33,816 nucleotides of DNA from Patescibacteria group bacterium (GTDB lineage: Bacteria; Patescibacteriota; Minisyncoccia; Phycocordibacterales; JBBUEZ01), in assembly GCA_038056715.1 (NCBI GenBank), contig JBBUEZ010000012.1, positions 1-33,816 of the forward strand, written 5' to 3'. Under the pieces are notes generated by a model. That model worked only from the letters and a program-made list of their open reading frames with translations, was not told the DNA's origin and searched no databases. Within the stretch, counting starts at the first letter, position 1. Each line of letters begins with the position of its first letter. A program made the position numbers and the translations under genes. Shown here in pieces: positions 3,133 through 29,942 of the stretch.

Positions 3133-3184
3133 AGTGCTTCGCATGGTATCATAGGGCGTGTGTGCGCGCAAACATCGCACAATA

Positions 3185-3221
3185 ATCAAGGTTCAATTTT
3201 CAATGATCAATAAATTTTCAA
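3185..3221. repeat. CAAT-family left arm flanking the four-helix-bundle gene
   Basis: TCAATTTTCAATGATCAATAAATTTTCAA; overlaps the ATG at 3203. Confidence 0.75.
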
Positions 3222-3598
3222 AAAACAATGATTCAAACAAAATCTATGATCTTGAAGAACGAACCGCGCAGTTTGGCGAAGCAATCATAGATTTATGTGC
3301 ACATATAAAAATGGGCACCATTACCACACCTCTGGTAAACCAGTTGGTAAGATCAGGAACAAGTATCGGCGCAAACTATTGCGAGGCGAATAACGCAAGT
3401 TCAAAAAAAGATTTTCGCAACAAAATTTTCATCTGTAAAAAAGAGTGCCAAGAAACAAAGCATTGGCTCCGAATGCTTATACGCGCGCTTCCAGAAGAGA
3501 AAGAGCCTATCAACCGTTTGTGGAAAGAATGCCAAGAACTGACCATGATTTTTCAAAAGATCACTACCTCAATTGATGAAAATAACCACAAGCATTGA
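3203..3598 (+). CDS. Four helix bundle protein (TIGR02436 / 23S rRNA-IVP-like)
   Basis: YDLEERT..F, QLVRSGTSIGANYCEA..ASSKKDFRNKIFICKKECQETKHWL, ECQEL..IF signature. Confidence 0.92.
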   Translation: MINKFSKNNDSNKIYDLEERTAQFGEAIIDLCAHIKMGTITTPLVNQLVRSGTSIGANYCEANNASSKKDFRNKIFICKKECQETKHWLRMLIRALPEEKEPINRLWKECQELTMIFQKITTSIDENNHKH

Positions 3599-3642
3599 TC
3601 ATTGTTTATTTATTGAAAATTGATTATTGGTCATTGATCATT
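3593..3642. repeat. CAAT-family right arm flanking the four-helix-bundle gene
   Basis: CATTGATCATTGTTTATTTATTGAAAATTGATTATTGGTCATTGATCATT; complementary to the left arm; contains the TGA stop. Confidence 0.8.
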
Positions 3643-3655
3643 ATATAGTTTTTAT

Positions 3656-4270
3656 ATGCAAGAATTTGATTTTATTTTCGCCATCGCCATATTGATCATG
3701 TCTGTCGTTGTGCATGAGGTGTCGCATGGATACGTTGCGGAACTTTTCGGGGATCCGACCGCGCGTCTTTCCGGACGGCTCACATTAAATCCGGCACGGC
3801 ATCTTGATCCTGTAGGTTCCTTTCTTGTGCCAATAGCGACCTATATGCTGGGCGGCTTTATTATCGGTTGGGCGAAGCCTGTGCCGTATAATCCGTATAA
3901 TTTTAGGCGTGTTCGTCTGGGGACTGCGCTCACTGCCGCCGCGGGTGCGCTCGCAAATCTTTTTATCGCCGTTATTTTCGGACTTCTTATTCGTTTTGCA
4001 CCGGCACTCGGCATCGTATCGGAGCCGTTTTTGGCGCTTGCGAGCACTATTGTGTTTATCAACATTATTCTCGCCGTATTTAATCTCATCCCCGTTCCGC
4101 CGCTTGATGGGTCAAAAGTACTTTTCTCGTTCCTACCGAATCGGTTTTATCACATTGAAGAGGCGCTGGAGCGCTACGCGCTTATTCTTATTGTTCTTGT
4201 CGTTTTCTTCGCGGCGGGGTTCATCGCTCCACTCGCATCATTCCTCTTTTCTCTTTTAACAGGAGTTTGA
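3656..4270 (+). CDS. Site-2 protease family (M50) membrane metalloprotease
   Basis: HEVSH (HExxH), GWAKPVP, FNLIPVPPLDG; several TM segments. Confidence 0.92.
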   Translation: MQEFDFIFAIAILIMSVVVHEVSHGYVAELFGDPTARLSGRLTLNPARHLDPVGSFLVPIATYMLGGFIIGWAKPVPYNPYNFRRVRLGTALTAAAGALANLFIAVIFGLLIRFAPALGIVSEPFLALASTIVFINIILAVFNLIPVPPLDGSKVLFSFLPNRFYHIEEALERYALILIVLVVFFAAGFIAPLASFLFSLLTGV

Positions 4271-5055: not shown

Positions 5056-5153
5056 CACGACACCAATCCACGAATAAAGGCGAATGACACAAATAAAAAA
5101 GACAAAAGGAGAGCCATTCGTGTCATTCGACCTCATTCGTAACCATTCGTATC
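5055..5153. repeat. CGAAT-family hairpin element (rpsL/rpsG)
   Basis: ACACGACACCAATCCACGAATAAAGGCGAATGACACAAAT ... ATTCGTGTCATTCGACCTCATTCGTAACCATTCGT. Confidence 0.85.
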
Positions 5154-5621
5154 ATGAGATATAAAATAAAAAACAGGAATATTCCAGGACCCGACCGCGT
5201 GCATAATTCCGATAAATTAAACAAATTTATCAATTACATCATGTGGGACGGCAAAAAGAACGCGGCACGAAGTGTCGTGTATGGCGCGCTTGATGTCATC
5301 AAAACAAAAGGCGAAGAAAAACCTTTTGAGATTTTTGAAGCGGCGATTAAAAATGTCGGCCCAACAATGGAGGTGCGCTCTCGTCGCATCGGAGGCGCGA
5401 ACTATCAGGTGCCGCGCGAAGTGCGTCCGGAACGCCGCGGCGCGCTTGCGATGCGCTGGATTGTTGCCGCCGCGCGCGGAAAAAAGGGGCGCCCCATGGC
5501 GGAGCGGCTCGCTGATGAAATCCTTTCCGCAAGCAAGGGCGAGGGCGAGGCGATCAAGAAGCGCGACAATGTGCATAAGATGGCGGAAGCAAATAAAGCG
5601 TTTGCCCATTTTACTTGGTGA
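5154..5621 (+). CDS. rpsG: 30S ribosomal protein S7
   Basis: EVRSRRIGGANYQVP, MAEANKAFAHF. Confidence 0.99.
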   Translation: MRYKIKNRNIPGPDRVHNSDKLNKFINYIMWDGKKNAARSVVYGALDVIKTKGEEKPFEIFEAAIKNVGPTMEVRSRRIGGANYQVPREVRPERRGALAMRWIVAAARGKKGRPMAERLADEILSASKGEGEAIKKRDNVHKMAEANKAFAHFTW

Positions 5622-8889: not shown

Positions 8890-9040
8890 TTGCGCGCGGG
8901 TACCTGAACAATAATCAAAATCGAATTGGGGACAATCTGGACTACACATTTAGTAACGGCCGTTACTAAATGTGTAGAACGGTCTTTGCTGGAGGGAATG
9001 ATGTGCTCAAAAAAGTCTTTGGTATCGTAACCACAGGGTG

Positions 9041-10418: not shown

Positions 10419-10521
10419 ACACGACACCAATCCACGAATGAAAACGAATGACGCAAATAAAAGAGACAAATGAGAAAGCCATTCGTGTCATTCGCGCGCT
10501 CATTCGTAATTTGTGTCGTGT
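10419..10521. repeat. CGAAT-family hairpin element (tuf/rpsJ)
   Basis: ACACGACACCAATCCACGAATGAAAACGAATGACGCAAAT ... ATTCGTGTCATTCGCGCGCTCATTCGTAATTTGTGTCGTGT. Confidence 0.9.
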
Positions 10522-10530
10522 ACATATAGT

Positions 10531-10908
10531 ATGACAAAAATAAAAAAAACTCCGGTGCGCGCAAAAAAAGCCGTATCTGCAAAAGCGCCCAAAATGGAAG
10601 ATATCGGCAAACTCCGCATTCGCGTACGCGCGTATGAAAACAAGGTATTGGATGCGTCTGTCAAACAGATCATTGATACCGCGATGCGCTATGACGCGCG
10701 CGTGGTGGGGCCGGTACCGCTCCCCACGGAAATTAAAAAGTACACGGTAAATCGTTCAACGTTCGTGCACAAAAATGCGCGCGAGCAGTTTGAAATGCGC
10801 GTGCATAAGCGAGTTCTTGATATCGTCAATCCCACTCCTAAAATCGTTGAAGCGCTCACGAACATGAACCTTCCTTCCGGAGTAAATGTGGATGTAAAAA
10901 TGAGTTAA
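10531..10908 (+). CDS. rpsJ: 30S ribosomal protein S10
   Basis: GPVPLPT, REQFEMRVHKR. Confidence 0.98.
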   Translation: MTKIKKTPVRAKKAVSAKAPKMEDIGKLRIRVRAYENKVLDASVKQIIDTAMRYDARVVGPVPLPTEIKKYTVNRSTFVHKNAREQFEMRVHKRVLDIVNPTPKIVEALTNMNLPSGVNVDVKMS

Positions 10909-11005
10909 CGCGGCACCAATTACGAATGAGCGCGAATGACACGAATACCACGCAGAGAAATTTTTATTCGTGTCATTTGTTTTCATTCGCGGATTTGTGT
11001 TGTGT
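10908..11005. repeat. CGAAT-family hairpin element (rpsJ/rplC), arms in inverted order
   Basis: ACGCGGCACCAATTACGAATGAGCGCGAATGACACGAAT ... ATTCGTGTCATTTGTTTTCATTCGCGGATTTGTGTTGTGT. Confidence 0.9.
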
Positions 11006-11014
11006 TTTAAAAAA

Positions 11015-11629: not shown

Positions 11630-11710
11630 AGTCACAAAGTCTATAAAGTTCATAAAGTAAAAAGCAGACGGAGACTTTACGGGCTTTCGACTTTATAGAC
11701 TTTATGGACT
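11620..11710. repeat. AAAGT-family hairpin element (rplC/rplD)
   Basis: AAGTCTGTAAAGTCACAAAGTCTATAAAGTTCATAAAGT ... ACTTTACGGGCTTTCGACTTTATAGACTTTATGGACT. Confidence 0.9.
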
Positions 11711-11718
11711 AAATAATC

Positions 11719-12384
11719 ATGGACGCCAAAATCTACAACACAGAGGGAAAGGAAACAGGGAAGATGACGCTTCCCGCAAGTGTTTTTGGCGTGCAGTGGA
11801 ATGCTGACCTCGTGCATGAAGTGGTAACCGCGATGAAGGCAAATGCGCGCACGCCGGTTGCGCACACGAAAGGACGCGGAGAGGTCCGCGGAGGAGGGAA
11901 AAAGCCGTGGAAACAGAAAGGAACTGGTCGCGCGCGACATGGATCTTCTCGTTCTCCGATTTGGATCGGCGGTGGTATTACCCACGGACCGCGTAAAGAA
12001 AAATCATACGCGCAAAAGATTAATAAAAAGTCCGCAGCGCGCGCGCTTGTTATGATGCTTTCTCGGAAATGGAAAGACGGGGAAATTCTTTTTGTTGATG
12101 ATTTTAATATGTCGGAGCGAAAAACCTCTCAAGCGAAAAAAGTTTTGAGCACCCTCTCTGCCGTTCCGGGATTCTCAATCGTACAAAAGAAAAGAAACGC
12201 GGCGCTCATTACAATTCCGACAAACGATGAAAACGTAAAGAAAAGTTTCCGTAATATCGGCAACGTGGCGGTTGAAGAGGCGCGCAATATAAATCCGGCA
12301 GATCTTCTTTCGTACAAATATATTGTCGTGGCTGGACCGAAGGAAAGCATTGCGATGTGGGAGAAAAGGGTAAGCAAGAAATAA
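11719..12384 (+). CDS. rplD: 50S ribosomal protein L4
   Basis: KPWKQKGTGRARHGS. Confidence 0.98.
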   Translation: MDAKIYNTEGKETGKMTLPASVFGVQWNADLVHEVVTAMKANARTPVAHTKGRGEVRGGGKKPWKQKGTGRARHGSSRSPIWIGGGITHGPRKEKSYAQKINKKSAARALVMMLSRKWKDGEILFVDDFNMSERKTSQAKKVLSTLSAVPGFSIVQKKRNAALITIPTNDENVKKSFRNIGNVAVEEARNINPADLLSYKYIVVAGPKESIAMWEKRVSKK

Positions 12385-12388
12385 TCAG

Positions 12389-12488
12389 CAATTATCAACG
12401 ACCAATTTTCAATAAATTTTCAATGACACAATGCCTTAATTGAAAATTGATTCATTAATTGAACATTGTGAATTGGTAATTGAGCATT
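12389..12488. repeat. CAAT-family hairpin element, empty (rplD/rplW)
   Basis: CAATTATCAACGACCAATTTTCAATAAATTTTCAATGACACAAT ... ATTGAAAATTGATTCATTAATTGAACATTGTGAATTGGTAATTGAGCATT. Confidence 0.88.
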
Positions 12489-12495
12489 AAACAGT

Positions 12496-12864
12496 ATGGC
12501 TATATTCAAGAAAACAAAAAAAGGAAAGACAGTAAAGGAATCAATAAAGGCGGAGACACGCGCTTCTGTAACATCTACGCCAACACCTCATTCGTATGCG
12601 CATGTACTTCTTTCTCCGCGCGTAACGGAAAAAGCGAGCGACCTTTCGGCTCATAACGCATATGTGTTTAATATAGATCCGCGTTCCGGAAAGAAGGATG
12701 TTGCCGCGGCAGTGAAAGCGGTTTATAATGTTTCCCCGATCTCTATTGCAACCATGCGAGTTCCCGGGAAGAAGACGAATCTTCGCGGGCGGAAAGGGAA
12801 GACCGCATCGGGCAAAAAAGCAATCGTGTATCTAAAGAAAGGAGAGAAGATAGAAGTTGTATAA
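12496..12864 (+). CDS. rplW: 50S ribosomal protein L23
   Basis: PRVTEKA, KKAIVYLKKG; operon position. Confidence 0.96.
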   Translation: MAIFKKTKKGKTVKESIKAETRASVTSTPTPHSYAHVLLSPRVTEKASDLSAHNAYVFNIDPRSGKKDVAAAVKAVYNVSPISIATMRVPGKKTNLRGRKGKTASGKKAIVYLKKGEKIEVV

Positions 12865-12910
12865 CACGACACTAATCCACGAATGTGCACGAATGACACG
12901 AATGAAAACA
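12864..12910. repeat. CGAAT-family solo left arm (rplW/rplB)
   Basis: ACACGACACTAATCCACGAATGTGCACGAATGACACGAATGAAAACA with no right arm. Confidence 0.85.
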
Positions 12911-14652: not shown

Positions 14653-14656
14653 TTTT

Positions 14657-14697
14657 TTGTTTCCCGCCGTCCGGTGGGAAAGAAGAAGAAGGGGTAG
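14657..14697 (+). repeat. Direct repeat copy 2 (orphan rplB 3' end)
   Basis: TTGTTTCCCGCCGTCCGGTGGGAAAGAAGAAGAAGGGGTAG = VSRRPVGKKKKG*. Confidence 0.9.
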
Positions 14698-14865
14698 GAA
14701 GAAATTTATAGGTGTTGCGAAGGCCATGACACATTACCACGGAGGGTTGACTTTTTTGTGTATTTGATGTAAAAATGAACGCCGAGAAGGTTCTTTTATA
14801 TATTTTTCTACATAGGTGAAGCGGCCGCGGCTACCAGTGGCGACGTGTATTTTGGAGAAAATATC

Positions 14866-15711
14866 ATGCCTACAAAGACTGATCATGCGCGCTCTATGAG
14901 TGCCACACATACGTACTTCGATACTATTCCGGAGGAGCTGCGGTGGCTGTATCCTGCCACTCTCGGTATCTGGGAAATGGCGCCTGGTGATATCACCAGG
15001 GAGATGGTGATGCTGTTGAAATCTGGAGGCAAAGCGATCGTTACCCCGACCAAGGTCGGCTACATCGTGATGACGGTCGATAGCGAAGGGCTTGTGAAGA
15101 AATTCGCTATGAAGGGGCGCCCGAGGTCGAAACCCGGCGTCGTGCTCCTATCCAGCCTCGACCAACTCGAGGAGCTGGCGGTCGTCAATGACAACATCCG
15201 AGGGCTGTATCAGTCGTGCTGGCAGAAGGACATCCTACTCGGATGCATCCTTCCCTGGCATCTCGAGGCGGCTGATCGTTACATCCCACAAGACGGGGCA
15301 CGCGACATGGTGCAGGATGCACGCGGCACCTCGTGTTTCGTCATCAAGTATGGCGATCCGTCGGAGCGCATCGCGGCGCATCTCTGGGAGAACGATCGTA
15401 TGTTGTCATTTGCCTCTTCGGCGAACCCGTCCGGCAAGGGCAACCGCGGACAACTCCAGTATGTCGGCGACGATATCATCGCCAAGGCCGACCACCTGGT
15501 GTTCGCTGACAGCTTTGTCGCAGGCCAGCAGCCGGAGAAGACCATCGAGACGCGCTGGGAACAGGGCGTCATGGTGTCCATGGTCGATGGCGAGGGACAA
15601 CTCATCGACCTGCCCGTCGTGATCCGCCGGGGACTGGTTCTCGAGCAGGTCATGCTCGAGATGTCGAAGATTTATGACTCTTTTGACTATCGGCACGGGG
15701 CGTATCACTGA
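14866..15711 (+). CDS. YrdC/Sua5 (TsaC-like) domain protein
   Basis: PTKVGY, KGRPRSKP, SSANPSG match the YrdC PT..VY / KxR..KP / TSANxSG motifs; GGAG SD; GC-rich codon usage. Confidence 0.8.
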   Translation: MPTKTDHARSMSATHTYFDTIPEELRWLYPATLGIWEMAPGDITREMVMLLKSGGKAIVTPTKVGYIVMTVDSEGLVKKFAMKGRPRSKPGVVLLSSLDQLEELAVVNDNIRGLYQSCWQKDILLGCILPWHLEAADRYIPQDGARDMVQDARGTSCFVIKYGDPSERIAAHLWENDRMLSFASSANPSGKGNRGQLQYVGDDIIAKADHLVFADSFVAGQQPEKTIETRWEQGVMVSMVDGEGQLIDLPVVIRRGLVLEQVMLEMSKIYDSFDYRHGAYH

Positions 15712-15845: not shown

Positions 15846-16208
15846 ATGACACGATCGCTTAAAAAAGGCCCGTACGTTGACGAACGGGTGATGAAGAAAA
15901 TTGCAGGGAAAAAACCGGGAGAAACCGGTGTTATTAAGACATGGGCGCGCGCATGTCAGATTCCGCCGGAAATGGTGGGATTTACATTTGGCGTACATAA
16001 CGGGAAGGAACATATTGAAGTTTTGATTGCGGAAGAGATGGTGGGGCATCGGTTGGGAGAGTTTTCCCCGACGCGCAAATTCCATCGCCACGGAGGAAAA
16101 ATGCAGAAAGAATTGGAGCAGAAAGCGAAGGAGTCCGAGATCGCGGCGGCACAGGCGGCGAAAGCGGGGGCAACCGATACAAAATCGGCACCGGCAAAAA
16201 GCAAATAA
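15846..16208 (+). CDS. rpsS: 30S ribosomal protein S19
   Basis: [24 protein letters not shown]-terminal extension. Confidence 0.98.
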
Positions 16209-16338
16209 CACGGCACCAATCCACAAATGAGCACGAATGACACGAATAATGATGCCGCCCCATTCGCGTCATTCGCATGTATTTGTGGATTGGTGTCGCA
16301 TTTATTCGTATATTCGTACCAGATTCGTAATTCGTAAT
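16208..16338. repeat. CGAAT-family hairpin plus an extra ATTCGTA right arm (rpsS/rplV)
   Basis: ACACGGCACCAATCCACAAATGAGCACGAATGACACGAAT ... ATTCGCGTCATTCGCATGTATTTGTGGATTGGTGTCGC, then ATTCGTATATTCGTACCAGATTCGTAATTCGTAAT. Confidence 0.9.
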
Positions 16339-16339
16339 C

Positions 16340-16696
16340 ATGAAAGCAATTCTTAAAAATTACCGCCAAGCGCCGCGCAAGGTACGACTCCTTGCGGATC
16401 TCGTGCGCGGAAAGGACGCACGGAAGGCGCTCATCACCCTTTCGTTTACCGATAAGCGCGCGGCCGCTCCGATTGCGAAGTTGATCAAGTCTGCAATCGC
16501 AAATGCAGGAATAAAAGGCGTTTCTGCCGAACATTTGTTCATTTCCGATATTCGTGTTGACAAAGGGGTAACGATGAAACGATCAATGCCGAAAGCGTTT
16601 GGACGCGCGGCACCGATCAATAAGCGTACGAGTAATTTGGTTGTTGCGCTTACTGAACGAACGGTAGAAGAGGCAAAGCCGAAAAAGTCAAAATGA
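16340..16696 (+). CDS. rplV: 50S ribosomal protein L22
   Basis: PRKVRLLADLVRGK, SAIANA, KRTSN. Confidence 0.97.
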   Translation: MKAILKNYRQAPRKVRLLADLVRGKDARKALITLSFTDKRAAAPIAKLIKSAIANAGIKGVSAEHLFISDIRVDKGVTMKRSMPKAFGRAAPINKRTSNLVVALTERTVEEAKPKKSK

Positions 16697-16703
16697 AAGA
16701 TAG

Positions 16704-16820
16704 CAATAATTTGCAATGATCAATTTACAATGTTCAATCAATACTCAATGAATCAATATTCCAATTGAAAATTGTGGCATTGAAAATTTAATGGAAATTG
16801 AGAATTGAAAATTGATAATT
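16704..16820. repeat. CAAT-family hairpin element, empty (rplV/rpsC)
   Basis: CAATGATCAATTTACAATGTTCAATCAATACTCAATGAATCAAT ... ATTGAAAATTGTGGCATTGAAAATTTAATGGAAATTGAGAATTGAAAATTGATAATT. Confidence 0.88.
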
Positions 16821-16838
16821 TATGTTACATTTACTACC

Positions 16839-17504
16839 ATGAGCAAAGTCATTCATCCATATTCGCATCGTTTAGGAATCATTCGCGGCTGGAAATCGCG
16901 CTGGTTTGGGGCGCGCGGCGAATACCAGAAATTCCTTCGCGGAGACGTATTGCTCCGAGAGTACTTGGAAAAGCGCCTTCGGAACAACTACATCGCTGAT
17001 ATTGAAATTGAACGCGGGGGTAAATCTATGAAAGTTCTCATAAAAACATCTCGTCCGGGCATGTTGATTGGACGCGCGGGAGAACATATGCAGAAATTGA
17101 AAAGTGATCTTGTGAAGGAAATGAGACGGCAGAAAGTATCGCTTCCAGCGGAGTTTTCCATTGATGTGGAAGAAGTCCGTTCCCCTGAATCAAATGCCGC
17201 AATCGTATCTCACATGATAGAAGAAGGCTTGGAGAAGCGTTTGCCGTTTCGCCGCGTGATCAAGCAGACGATAGAGAAGGTTATGGCAAACCGCGAAGTG
17301 AAGGGTGCGCGCATCGGGTTGTCGGGACGCTTGGGAGGCGCGGAAATGAGCAGAACGGAAGATTTGAAGAGAGGCGGGATTCCGCTCCAAACATTTCGCG
17401 CAGACATTGATTTTGCGCGCGGACGCGCGCATCTTCCGTACGGAGACATAGGTATCAAGGTGTGGATTTATAAAGGACAAGTTTTTGACAAGCAAAAACA
17501 GTAA
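16839..17504 (+). CDS. rpsC: 30S ribosomal protein S3
   Basis: RPGMLIGRAG, SGRLGGAEMSR, PLQTFRADIDF, GIKVWIYKG. Confidence 0.98.
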   Translation: MSKVIHPYSHRLGIIRGWKSRWFGARGEYQKFLRGDVLLREYLEKRLRNNYIADIEIERGGKSMKVLIKTSRPGMLIGRAGEHMQKLKSDLVKEMRRQKVSLPAEFSIDVEEVRSPESNAAIVSHMIEEGLEKRLPFRRVIKQTIEKVMANREVKGARIGLSGRLGGAEMSRTEDLKRGGIPLQTFRADIDFARGRAHLPYGDIGIKVWIYKGQVFDKQKQ

Positions 17505-17593
17505 AAAGTCCGTAAAGTCTGTAAAGTCCGTAAAGTAAAATGGAAATACGCCCCGATGACTTTATAGACTTTTGACTTTCAACTTTAAAGACT
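17505..17593. repeat. AAAGT-family hairpin element (rpsC/rplP)
   Basis: AAAGTCCGTAAAGTCTGTAAAGTCCGTAAAGT ... ACTTTATAGACTTTTGACTTTCAACTTTAAAGACT. Confidence 0.9.
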
Positions 17594-17598
17594 AAATT

Positions 17599-19074: not shown

Positions 19075-19380
19075 ATGAAAATCAAAAAAGGAGACAATGT
19101 AATAATTATCGCGGGAAAGGATAAAGGGTCCGAGGGGAAAGTCCTGCGCGTGTTTCCGAGCGCATCGCTCGCGCTTGTTGAGGGTGTGAATATGAAGAAG
19201 AAGCATCAAAAGGCGCGTAAGGGCGGTACGAAAGGGCAGATCGTGTCCTTTGCGGCGCCTATGCATATTTCCAACATTGCGCTCAAAGATCCGAAATCGG
19301 GTAAACCTTCGCGCGTCGGATATAAGATAGAAGGGGGAAAGAAAGTGCGGATTTCAAAAAAGAGCGGGGCAATAATATAA
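19075..19380 (+). CDS. rplX: 50S ribosomal protein L24
   Basis: KIKKGDNV..IAGKDKG (KOW), PMHISN. Confidence 0.98.
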   Translation: MKIKKGDNVIIIAGKDKGSEGKVLRVFPSASLALVEGVNMKKKHQKARKGGTKGQIVSFAAPMHISNIALKDPKSGKPSRVGYKIEGGKKVRISKKSGAII

Positions 19381-19381
19381 A

Positions 19382-19499
19382 ACACGACGCAAATATCACG
19401 AATAAGCACGAATGACACGAATAAACTCGCATCGGCATAGATAATAATGTTGCAGCCCATTCGCGTCATTCGCATGTATTTGTGGATTGGTGTCGCATT
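19382..19499. repeat. CGAAT-family hairpin element (rplX/rplE)
   Basis: ACACGACGCAAATATCACGAATAAGCACGAATGACACGAAT ...; right arm 19456-19499 identical to 16259-16302. Confidence 0.9.
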
Positions 19500-19518
19500 A
19501 TTACCGACAAACTAAACT

Positions 19519-25145: not shown

Positions 25146-25241
25146 AGTAAGTAGTAAATAGTTGGTAGTGAGTAGCAAAAACACACAAAACGAAATATTA
25201 CACACTACACACTACTCACTACACACTACTCACTACAAACT
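25146..25241. repeat. AGTAGTG-family hairpin element (rplR/rpsE)
   Basis: AGTAAGTAGTAAATAGTTGGTAGTGAGTAG ... CACTACACACTACTCACTACACACTACTCACTACAAACT. Confidence 0.88.
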
Positions 25242-27757: not shown

Positions 27758-27769
27758 AAGAAAGTGTAC

Positions 27770-27843
27770 AGTATAAGGGATTGGCATGAGGGCGCGCCGA
27801 CACGGACACGCGGCTCCCTTATACTAATACCTTATACTTATTC
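27770..27843. repeat. AGTAT-family hairpin element (secY/adk)
   Basis: AGTATAAGGGA ... TCCCTTATACTAATACCTTATACTTATTC. Confidence 0.7.
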
Positions 27844-27849
27844 CTCCTC

Positions 27850-29900: not shown

Positions 29901-29942
29901 ATCTCATTACTATCTTACTATATAGTAAGATAGTAATGAGAT
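29901..29942. repeat. Perfect 42-bp palindrome
   Basis: ATCTCATTACTATCTTACTAT|ATAGTAAGATAGTAATGAGAT. Confidence 0.95.

Follow-up and report, generated by a model that had tools for sequence, protein, structure and literature searches.

A gene for a four-helix-bundle protein of the PF05635/TIGR02436 family lies between two long complementary arms in the window (the whole 33,816-nt stretch of DNA analyzed here), and the same arm-gene-arm arrangement surrounds most of the family genes that we examined in related genomes and across bacterial phyla. With moderate confidence, we favor the explanation that this arrangement is a selfish cassette of the type known from rRNA intervening sequences (IVSs), which sits in operon spacers, is probably read through and cut by RNase III, and has related gene-less hairpins.

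The window gene and its arms

The window contig (C12) is part of a 650-kb genome in 46 contigs (~48% G+C, 84% completeness; here, G000), and the sequencing runs that contain the organism are from groundwater. The product of the window gene, P0001, matched the PF05635 profile at 7e-15 (55.5 bits; cut-off, 33.8) and the TIGR02436 profile at 3e-22 (78.9 bits; cut-off, 24). Its AF2 model (pLDDT, 92.5) contains four helices (residues 17-34, 41-63, 68-95, and 97-129), and Foldseek matched this model best to 2rld (32% identity; TM, 0.71/0.85); 2gsc (TM, 0.72/0.83) was also matched, and the DGR protein Avd (4dwl; probability, 0.99) ranked after these two. Both the AF2 model and the Foldseek matches thus give P0001 a four-helix-bundle fold like that of 2gsc and 2rld. 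R50, S54, N58, and E61 occupy conserved columns of our family alignment (A1), with N58 invariant and the other three at 90% or higher, such that P0001 carries the R..S...N..E motif of a family whose consensus is given as GxxRxxxSxxxNxxE in PMC3936711. The 16 N-terminal residues, which precede the first helix (H17) and are mostly encoded by the left arm, were modeled with low pLDDT (block means of 51 and 81). These profile and structure matches, including that to Avd, uphold the family assignment made in the preliminary description.

An inverted-repeat search recovered the two arms (Table 1) as 53-nt segments that are 72% complementary and spaced 356 nt apart, with a perfect 11-nt core at 3201-3211 and 3594-3604. 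The ATG (3203-3205) lies inside CAATGATCAAT and the TGA (3596-3598) inside CATTGATCATTG. Since the left flank contains CAAT-type words only and the right flank ATTG-type words only, each flank constitutes a half-arm rather than a hairpin of its own. Consistent with this arrangement, the minimum free energy and centroid folds of 3150-3680 both paired the arms across the open reading frame, so the gene does lie, as had been described, between a CAAT arm over its ATG and an ATTG arm with its TGA. Terminal inverted repeats that form a stem around the open reading frame, a defining feature of IVSs, are accordingly present in the window unit, and they are present in the family as well (see below).

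Table 1. Positions in the window of the arm-flanked gene, its arms, and the gene-less hairpins, by arm family
Feature	Position	Strand	Remarks
Left (5') arm, CAAT-type words	3181-3233	+	Covers the ATG and the first ~10 codons
Four-helix-bundle gene, 131 aa	3203-3598	+	Open reading frame without internal stop; PF05635/TIGR02436; P0001-like subfamily
Right (3') arm, ATTG-type words	3590-3642	+	Holds the TGA; ends 14 nt short of the M50 peptidase ATG (3656)
Gene-less CAAT-family hairpin before rplW (L23)	12383-12481	+	Fills the spacer; 14-nt loop; -21.2 kcal/mol, z -2.2
Gene-less CAAT-family hairpin, rplV (L22)/rpsC (S3) junction	16696-16832	+	-29.3 kcal/mol, z -2.2; 1-mismatch copies of both 14-mers
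Gene-less hairpin, ..TAAAGT.. family	11638-11710	+	Arm family of the C15/C44 unit; z -7.5
Further ..TAAAGT.. family hairpins	17500-17584, 23461-23534
Gene-less hairpin, GTATAAGGG family	27759-27848	+	Arm family of the C35 unit
Hairpin related to GTATAAGGG family	18991-19070
Gene-less hairpin, GTAGTGA heptads	25151-25236	+	Arms match units in G004 and G035 (L012, L014)
Gene-less hairpin, CACGAATGA family, 9-nt unit	10419-10521	+	z -5.7
Further CACGAATGA family hairpins	5056-5156, 10907-11006, 16202-16308, 19378-19503
Solo arm, CACGAATGA family	about 12862-12905

The upstream neighbor of the gene is the L28 gene on the minus strand, and the downstream neighbor encodes an M50 peptidase (Peptidase_M50). 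Because it follows a divergent gene, the window unit heads a transcription unit rather than lying inside one. A promoter and terminator scan around the unit placed no promoter-like site upstream of the gene and no terminator-like site at the arms; the scan returned three promoter-like and three terminator-like sites in all, which does not clearly exceed the shuffle means of 2.1 and 1.1. No Rfam family matched the window at its gathering score.

The arm-gene-arm unit across the family

The genome of the window contains eight PF05635 matches, three of them at contig ends, which correspond to seven units because C15 and C44 hold the halves of one gene that was split by contig ends. Complementary arms were found on all seven units (7/7), and their sequence differed from unit to unit; cognate arm pairs averaged -39.1 kcal/mol, compared to -19.7 kcal/mol for non-cognate pairs. 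When 80-nt flanks were analyzed with RNAduplex, the C14 and C2 units did not rise above their shuffles (z of -1.0 and -1.2; 2/7 units). Since RNAduplex permits large bulges on flanks of this length and missed these arms, we used an alignment test instead, which both units passed (38 versus 26 for C14 and 44 versus 25 for C2).

We then extended the alignment test to two larger samples. The order set comprised 41 genomes, one per genus except for the additional genome G001 from the window's own genus, and PF05635 matches were found in 22 of them. In 45 of the 52 units from these 22 genomes, the flanks were more complementary than in any of 100 shuffles, and five of the seven failing units were matches under the Pfam cut-off. 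The wide set of 80 loci was obtained by scanning a single bacterial genome for each species and included Patescibacteria, Bacteroidota, Planctomycetota, Verrucomicrobiota, Acidobacteriota, Pseudomonadota, and other phyla; 64 of its 79 evaluable loci passed the shuffles (15/18 labeled as CPR and 49/61 others). The arms in this set tracked host G+C content, with GC-rich arms in GC-rich hosts. In the pooled analysis, 105/128 units passed in the true geometry, compared to 2/125 and 4/104 at mock positions displaced by 750 nt, and 18/128 passed when direct rather than inverted similarity was scored. Arms were absent in about 15 to 20% of the loci in the order and wide sets. The preliminary description had regarded arm-gene-arm as the full unit and had called for the flanks of family genes in this and related genomes to be searched for arm families; this search found arms, and the unit stands in the window's own genome, in its order, and across phyla, with clean controls.

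The architecture was also regular in its dimensions. The arms of order units are 315 to 476 nt apart, and the right arm mostly begins within about 25 nt of the stop codon. Tandem Repeats Finder (TRF) detected an array in 225/262 flanks, compared to 35/212 control flanks, with a period of 7 in 123 flanks and of 14 in 44 and a median length of 4.4 heptads. Read inwards 5' to 3', the arms are C-poor in 91/108 units, and the C content of the heptads is 7%. This C-poverty would keep each arm from folding on itself, and, being dyad-symmetric, it is uninformative on the strand. An apparent polarity relative to the gene, in the form of a G-rich 5' arm, was dropped from consideration, given that an inverted repeat looks identical on both strands.

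Gene-less hairpins and their relation to the unit

An empty element at the rplD/rplW junction had been reported to share words with the window unit, and all three words proved exact. The 14-mer CAATAAATTTTCAA is found at 3208 as well as at 12410, and a copy that differs at one position lies at 16780 on the minus strand; the 14-mer ATTGAAAATTGATT is found at both 3612 and 12439, and copies with one mismatch lie at 12411 (minus strand) and 16804; and, by direct reading, CAATTTTCAAT is identical at 3194-3204 and 12403-12413. The chance expectation was 0.04 for CAATAAATTTTCAA and 0.11 for ATTGAAAATTGATT, and no shuffle out of 100 gave at least three matches to the former or at least four to the latter, in shuffles that kept the dinucleotide content of the whole window rather than the local AT-richness of spacers. 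For AT-rich spacers, a back-of-envelope estimate gives about 0.02 shared 14-mers by chance. The hairpin at the rplV/rpsC junction, with its 1-mismatch copies of both 14-mers, is of the same family, as had been proposed. We identified the genes at these junctions as L23 (rplW, 12496-12861), L22 (rplV, 16340-16693), and S3 (rpsC, 16812-17501), while 11719-12384 was called L4 from its operon position only.

The window contains gene-less hairpins of several further arm families (Table 1). The arms of the C15/C44 unit share a 14-mer with seven hairpins. Arms of the GTAGTGA type occur on none of the units of the window's own genome, and no unit with arms of the CACGAATGA family was found in this assembly. 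A scan of the whole genome with a seed-and-align hairpin finder yielded 260 hairpins, 81% of them intergenic, compared to 4 in the locally shuffled genome; RNALfold over the contig was too noisy for this purpose, since every 220-nt window folds. The hairpins were grouped by Louvain clustering on arm 8-mers into families that are still rough, after single-linkage clustering by 9-mers had lumped 245 of the 260 into one group and was replaced. Among them are stems that resemble terminators, perfect palindromes without a loop, and hairpins with arms made of tandem short units, and only the last kind has arm families in common with the gene-bearing units.

The controls in this and the preceding section refute the reading that AT-rich spacers share words and pair by accident, to which we assign a negligible probability. 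The CAAT arms are indeed AT-rich and the stems of the CAAT hairpins are weak, at -21 and -29 kcal/mol (with a z of about -2.2 for each), and two of the seven units in the genome did not exceed their shuffles in the RNAduplex test. However, the low expectations for both 14-mers (0/100 shuffles for each), which speak against the earlier concern about chance sharing in AT-rich spacers, the clean separation of true from mock geometry, and the excess of hairpins over the shuffled genome all contradict an accidental origin, as do the GC-rich arms of GC-rich hosts and the success of C14 and C2 in the alignment test.

Whether the gene-less hairpins are empty derivatives of the full unit, as the preliminary description inferred, received a divided answer. 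In favor of kinship between the two classes, they have arm families in common: a 14-mer from the arms of the genome's own units (1,190 nt) occurs in 15 hairpins, compared to 4 hairpins for the arms of 38 foreign units (3,244 nt). At the level of short words, this difference nearly disappeared, as operon hairpins matched own-genome arms (20/76) little better than foreign arms (381/2,168), which makes such words nearly uninformative. Against descent from filled units, a search of the gene-less loops revealed no gene remnant above shuffles, and no filled copy turned up at ribosomal-operon junctions in the operon regions of 36 relatives, so the relatives with a gene inside the loop at these junctions that had been predicted did not appear among them. 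Nor did filled and empty alleles of the window unit come to light: among the joints listed for contigs of four metagenome DNA runs, none spanned 3181-3642, and the unit was present wherever these runs covered it, with the contig of one run spanning it intact; that the X12 run lists no piece over it is uninformative. Joints that skip 17472-17597 had short sides and high depth and are probably from other organisms. The only structural difference seen was at the solo arm at 12862-12905, where three other runs have one extra 9-nt CACGAATGA unit behind 12887; this one-unit length difference points to slippage.

The comparison with G001 (same genus, RplD 65% identical, 96% complete, 110 contigs) bears on a different reading, namely, that the hairpins were host elements first, serving, for example, operon processing or mRNA stability at gene junctions, and that the gene is a later passenger inserted into their loops, in the way that IVSs occupy the tips of rRNA helices. 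Within 7.8 kb of its operon, G001 has nine hairpins, and five or six of these are of one tandem-unit family that flanks genes in G004 and G010; neither Pfam nor a custom profile, however, detected a family gene in this genome. Given that G001 is in 110 contigs and that three of the eight matches in the window's own genome lie at contig ends, the gene could be present in G001 but unassembled. The rplC/rplD junction holds a hairpin in both genomes, with different arm families. Many hairpins without a gene in G001, a junction that keeps its hairpin but not its arm family, loops free of gene remnants, whole spacers of a highly expressed operon filled with hairpins in a 650-kb genome, and a majority of the 260 hairpins that are of other kinds and have no link to the gene would all fit hairpins that came first. 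We nonetheless judge this order of events to be quite improbable, because protein clade predicts arm family across contexts and genomes (see below), arms also occur in phyla without known hairpin-rich genomes, and own-unit arms match resident hairpins ~10-fold better per base than foreign arms do at the level of 14-mers. For protein clade to predict arm family in this way, the two must have moved jointly or targeting must be clade-specific, and recognition is implied in each case. Hairpins in the S10/spc operon were denser in genomes with more family genes (Spearman, 0.55; 37 genomes), and their mean density per 10 kb was 4.7 where the gene is present and 2.0 where it is absent, although these genomes are kin rather than independent and the P values are therefore overstated.

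Transcript context, relation to rRNA IVSs, and implications

Protein similarity correlated with the sharing of arm words across 42 units (Mantel r, 0.33; 0/2,000 permutations as high), a correlation to which G+C content could contribute. Within the P0001 clade, all five members (52 to 58% identity) have CAAT/TTCAA-type arms, in four contexts (L28/M50 peptidase; GAPDH/RpiB; sulfotransferase/unknown; and unknown/TraG-like ATPase, the last in two genomes). Since neutral DNA would be randomized at this level of protein identity, the arm word of the clade appears to be under constraint, and its conservation within a protein clade suggests that the family protein may recognize its own arms.

The units and hairpins are also oriented with respect to transcription. 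Both neighbors were co-oriented with the family gene at 71/96 loci and both were opposed at 5/96, based on crude calls from open reading frames. All 19 intergenic period-7 hairpins of the window's own genome for which both neighbors were called lie between codirectional genes (19/19), compared to a ratio of 107 to 48 for codirectional versus other positions among the remaining hairpins. These hairpins do not resemble intrinsic terminators, which combine a GC-rich stem with a T-run, as a T-run followed only 4/26 period-7 hairpins. Long-term selection on pairing in the sense RNA should favor G·U over A·C mismatches, but the two were equally frequent in sense-strand arms, at 95 versus 91 in the order and 115 versus 127 across phyla (210 versus 218 combined), and in gene-less hairpins (178 versus 194), so there is no sign of such selection. 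The complementarity of the arms thus resembles what would be expected of DNA inverted repeats or young copies rather than of sense-RNA stems under long selection.

The symmetric mismatches are as expected for a DNA-level mobile element, in which the arms would be terminal inverted repeats made of arrays of binding words, like those at many transposon ends, and the protein, aided by host enzymes, would recognize them on double-stranded DNA or on hairpins of single-stranded DNA; the gene-less hairpins would be MITE-like, non-autonomous copies, and any hairpin in RNA would be incidental. As in MITEs and small transposons, this genome has terminal inverted repeats and several copies that are dispersed, families of gene-less copies number about 3 to a dozen per genome, similar families recur in distant genomes (in G004, the CACGAAT hairpin; in G001, G004, and G010, the AAATGTAAAAT family), and clade-specific arms are found in different contexts. 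The one-unit length difference between strains and the dyad-symmetric C-poverty of the arms, which fits either strand, agree with this reading as well. It remains, in our estimation, an unlikely account of the whole: the 120- to 130-aa bundle has no recognizable catalytic domain, the joints listed from the four runs include neither a presence/absence allele nor a unit-spanning joint, and a pure DNA model does not predict co-orientation with host transcription (71 versus 5) or copies in rRNA genes. The two accounts are compatible, since an element that moves as DNA could also be processed as RNA.

Among known systems, the rRNA IVSs come closest to the cassette that we favor. In the Coxiella IVS, as described in PMC4990558, terminal repeats form a 28-bp stem, the S23p ORF occupies the loop, and RNase III cuts in midstem; PMC11270868 reports PF05635 ORFs in insertions in CPR 16S and 23S genes. 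The window unit and its relatives resemble such IVSs in protein family, in carrying the ORF in the loop of a stem, in their length of a few hundred nucleotides, and in their sense orientation within a highly transcribed unit, and an RNase III gene is present in the window's genome (C29:7424-7816). A Leptospira rRNA IVS likewise carries a PF05635 protein. The resemblance extends to location in two cases: the L021 unit of a relative, whose heptad arms are of the CTGGAAA type, is enclosed by a full 16S rRNA match, as IVSs lie within rRNA genes at helix tips, and the C10 unit of the window's genome ends just before position 1 of the 16S model. These two units give substance to the likeness to IVSs that had been proposed from the window alone. 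In contrast, the window unit and most others lie between protein genes rather than in rRNA, and no rRNA was found within 1.5 kb of 19/20 order loci and 20/20 wide loci scanned. In the rRNA IVS literature that we searched, there was no heptad-array arm, arm-clade link, or gene-less derivative in mRNA spacers, and a search of full-text literature, with the free-text entry of TIGR02436 outside its scope, turned up no account of arms flanking family genes that stand free of rRNA.

Other known systems share parts of this design. Avd, whose four-helix-bundle fold is homologous to that of P0001, is described as a pentamer that grips bases of an RNA stem-loop between its protomers (bioRxiv 10.1101/2023.10.23.563531), and the 2rld and 2gsc crystal entries contain five chains each. 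The window unit differs from Avd systems in that its gene stands alone between its own arms, with no TR/VR and with 0 matches to the RVT_1 reverse transcriptase in an assembly that is 84% complete; given this absence and its L28 and M50 peptidase neighbors, the window unit is not a DGR. The Correia/nemis elements of Neisseria are hairpin-forming miniature repeats that are cut by RNase III, and in REP systems a RAYT gene is flanked by cognate REPs. Like Correia/nemis and REP elements, the units and hairpins described here are short multicopy inverted repeats in transcribed intergenic spacers, and, as in REP/RAYT systems, a gene lies between repeats that also occur scattered and gene-less in the genome. 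They differ from both in encoding a small helical bundle instead of a transposase and in having tandem heptad arms whose sequence depends on the protein clade; no mobility event was observed for them. Two papers count the family among genes linked to cas loci or CRISPR arrays (PMC3936711, for example as a copy between cmr3 and cmr2, and PMC10910872). Such links may have arisen because these genes insert into operons and, possibly, because repeat arms were taken for arrays.

In the IVS-type cassette that we favor, a PF05635/TIGR02436 gene exactly fills the loop of a long hairpin, in a class of element that spans the family and phyla, with arms that are inverted tandem arrays, mostly of heptads, at about 4 to 5 per arm. 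The cassette would occupy host transcription units in sense orientation, whether in operon spacers, rRNA leaders, or rRNA helices, and would move or be inherited jointly with its arms. It would probably be transcribed by read-through, upon which the arms would pair in the transcript across about 350 to 450 nt and RNase III would cut the stem, by analogy with 23S rRNA IVSs. The loop with the ORF would thereby be released while the cistrons or rRNA on either side stayed intact, and this would account for the persistence of the cassette only where a cut in the RNA is harmless. Gene-less hairpins of the same arm families at operon junctions would be non-coding relatives of the cassette, and the protein may recognize the arms much as the Avd pentamer holds its RNA stem-loop. 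Several findings weigh against this explanation, namely, the balance of G·U and A·C mismatches, the position of the window unit at the head of a transcription unit with no promoter-like site found upstream, the weak CAAT stems, the hairpins of G001 with no family gene detected there, the lack of gene remnants in loops and of filled alleles among the 36 relatives, the poor discrimination by short words, and the loci that lack arms. A more ambitious version, which is possible but which we advance only tentatively, centers on a self-recognizing hairpin element of which the family proteins would be one half: a pentamer would read the 4 to 5 heptads of an arm, one per protomer cleft, each clade would mark, protect, or spread its own arms, and rRNA IVSs, cassettes in operon spacers, gene-less heptad hairpins, and the recognition of RNA by Avd in DGRs would have branched from a single ancient partnership between protein and hairpin, present across bacterial phyla.

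The PF05635/TIGR02436 family is widespread in many phyla, and, to our knowledge, a function has been assigned to it only in DGRs. The link to rRNA IVSs, in turn, has been an unexplained curiosity since the 1990s. If most free-standing copies have the architecture of an IVS, the unit of study would be the gene together with its arms. The hairpins in the ribosomal-protein operons of small CPR genomes would, if the cassette explanation is true, gain a candidate origin, and, if recognition is real, the clades and their arms would provide a natural set of orthogonal protein/repeat pairs.

Complementary arms around the S10 gene

Two complete hairpins of the CACGAAT family flank the S10 gene, and together they give rise to an inverted repeat (45 nt, 87%) that spans this gene. 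This arrangement shows that a layout of arms around a gene can be produced by two neighboring hairpins. Since such pairs can mimic gene-flanking arms, it matters to check that each flank of a four-helix-bundle gene holds one arm only rather than a complete hairpin of its own. Directly downstream of the L23 gene, a 5′ arm of the CACGAAT family stands alone, its partner arm being absent; in three other metagenome runs, this solo arm carries one extra 9-nt unit.

L23 itself has an N-terminal extension of ~33 residues, with its profile match starting at residue 34. The S10 operon contains a 288-amino-acid open reading frame (ORF) between rplB and rpsS, whose weak TsaC/Sua5-like match (E = 4e-8) fell under the cutoff. 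The spacer preceding this ORF is not of the CAAT-hairpin type.

Locations of the features discussed
Feature	Location
Zero-loop perfect palindrome, 18+18 nt	window 8942-8977
Zero-loop perfect palindrome, 21+21 nt	window 29901-29942
CACGAAT-family hairpins	window 10419-10521, 10907-11006
S10 gene	window 10513-10905
L23 gene	window 12496-12861
Solo CACGAAT-family 5′ arm	window 12862-12905
Spacer preceding ORF	window 14653-14844
288-amino-acid ORF	window 14845-15711
Split four-helix-bundle gene	source genome, C15:55-231 and C44:27-218 (outside window)
Hairpin repeat resembling its break point	source genome, C4:43937-43981
L005, shortened gene copy	source genome, C4:33870-34250
L075, ribosomal operon	G018 (same order), C3:1-10447

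Split and shortened four-helix-bundle genes

One four-helix-bundle gene of the source genome is divided between two contig ends. The sequence at the break point is similar to that of a different hairpin repeat in the same genome, so the gene may contain an inserted second element. In the L005 copy, the reading frame ends early, leaving an open frame of 90 amino acids and a profile match that covers positions 2 to 68 only. Its GTAACTG-type arms are nevertheless intact. L005 is probably a decaying gene within a retained hairpin.

Other palindromic repeats

The shorter zero-loop palindrome of the window is similar to palindrome families spread throughout the source genome, where one family of ~22 copies ends in ..GTATACGGTAC and another of ~9 copies in ..CAGTAACGG. 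The zero-loop palindromes have no relation to the heptad hairpins; they may serve as binding sites for proteins or represent a further class of repeat.

At L075, 10 kb of ribosomal operon contains six copies of a non-tandem hairpin (arms ..GACGTCCGACCTCTG..GGTAA; loop, 29 nt) that differs from the tandem-arm hairpins. It is a further repeat family occupying operon junctions in this order.
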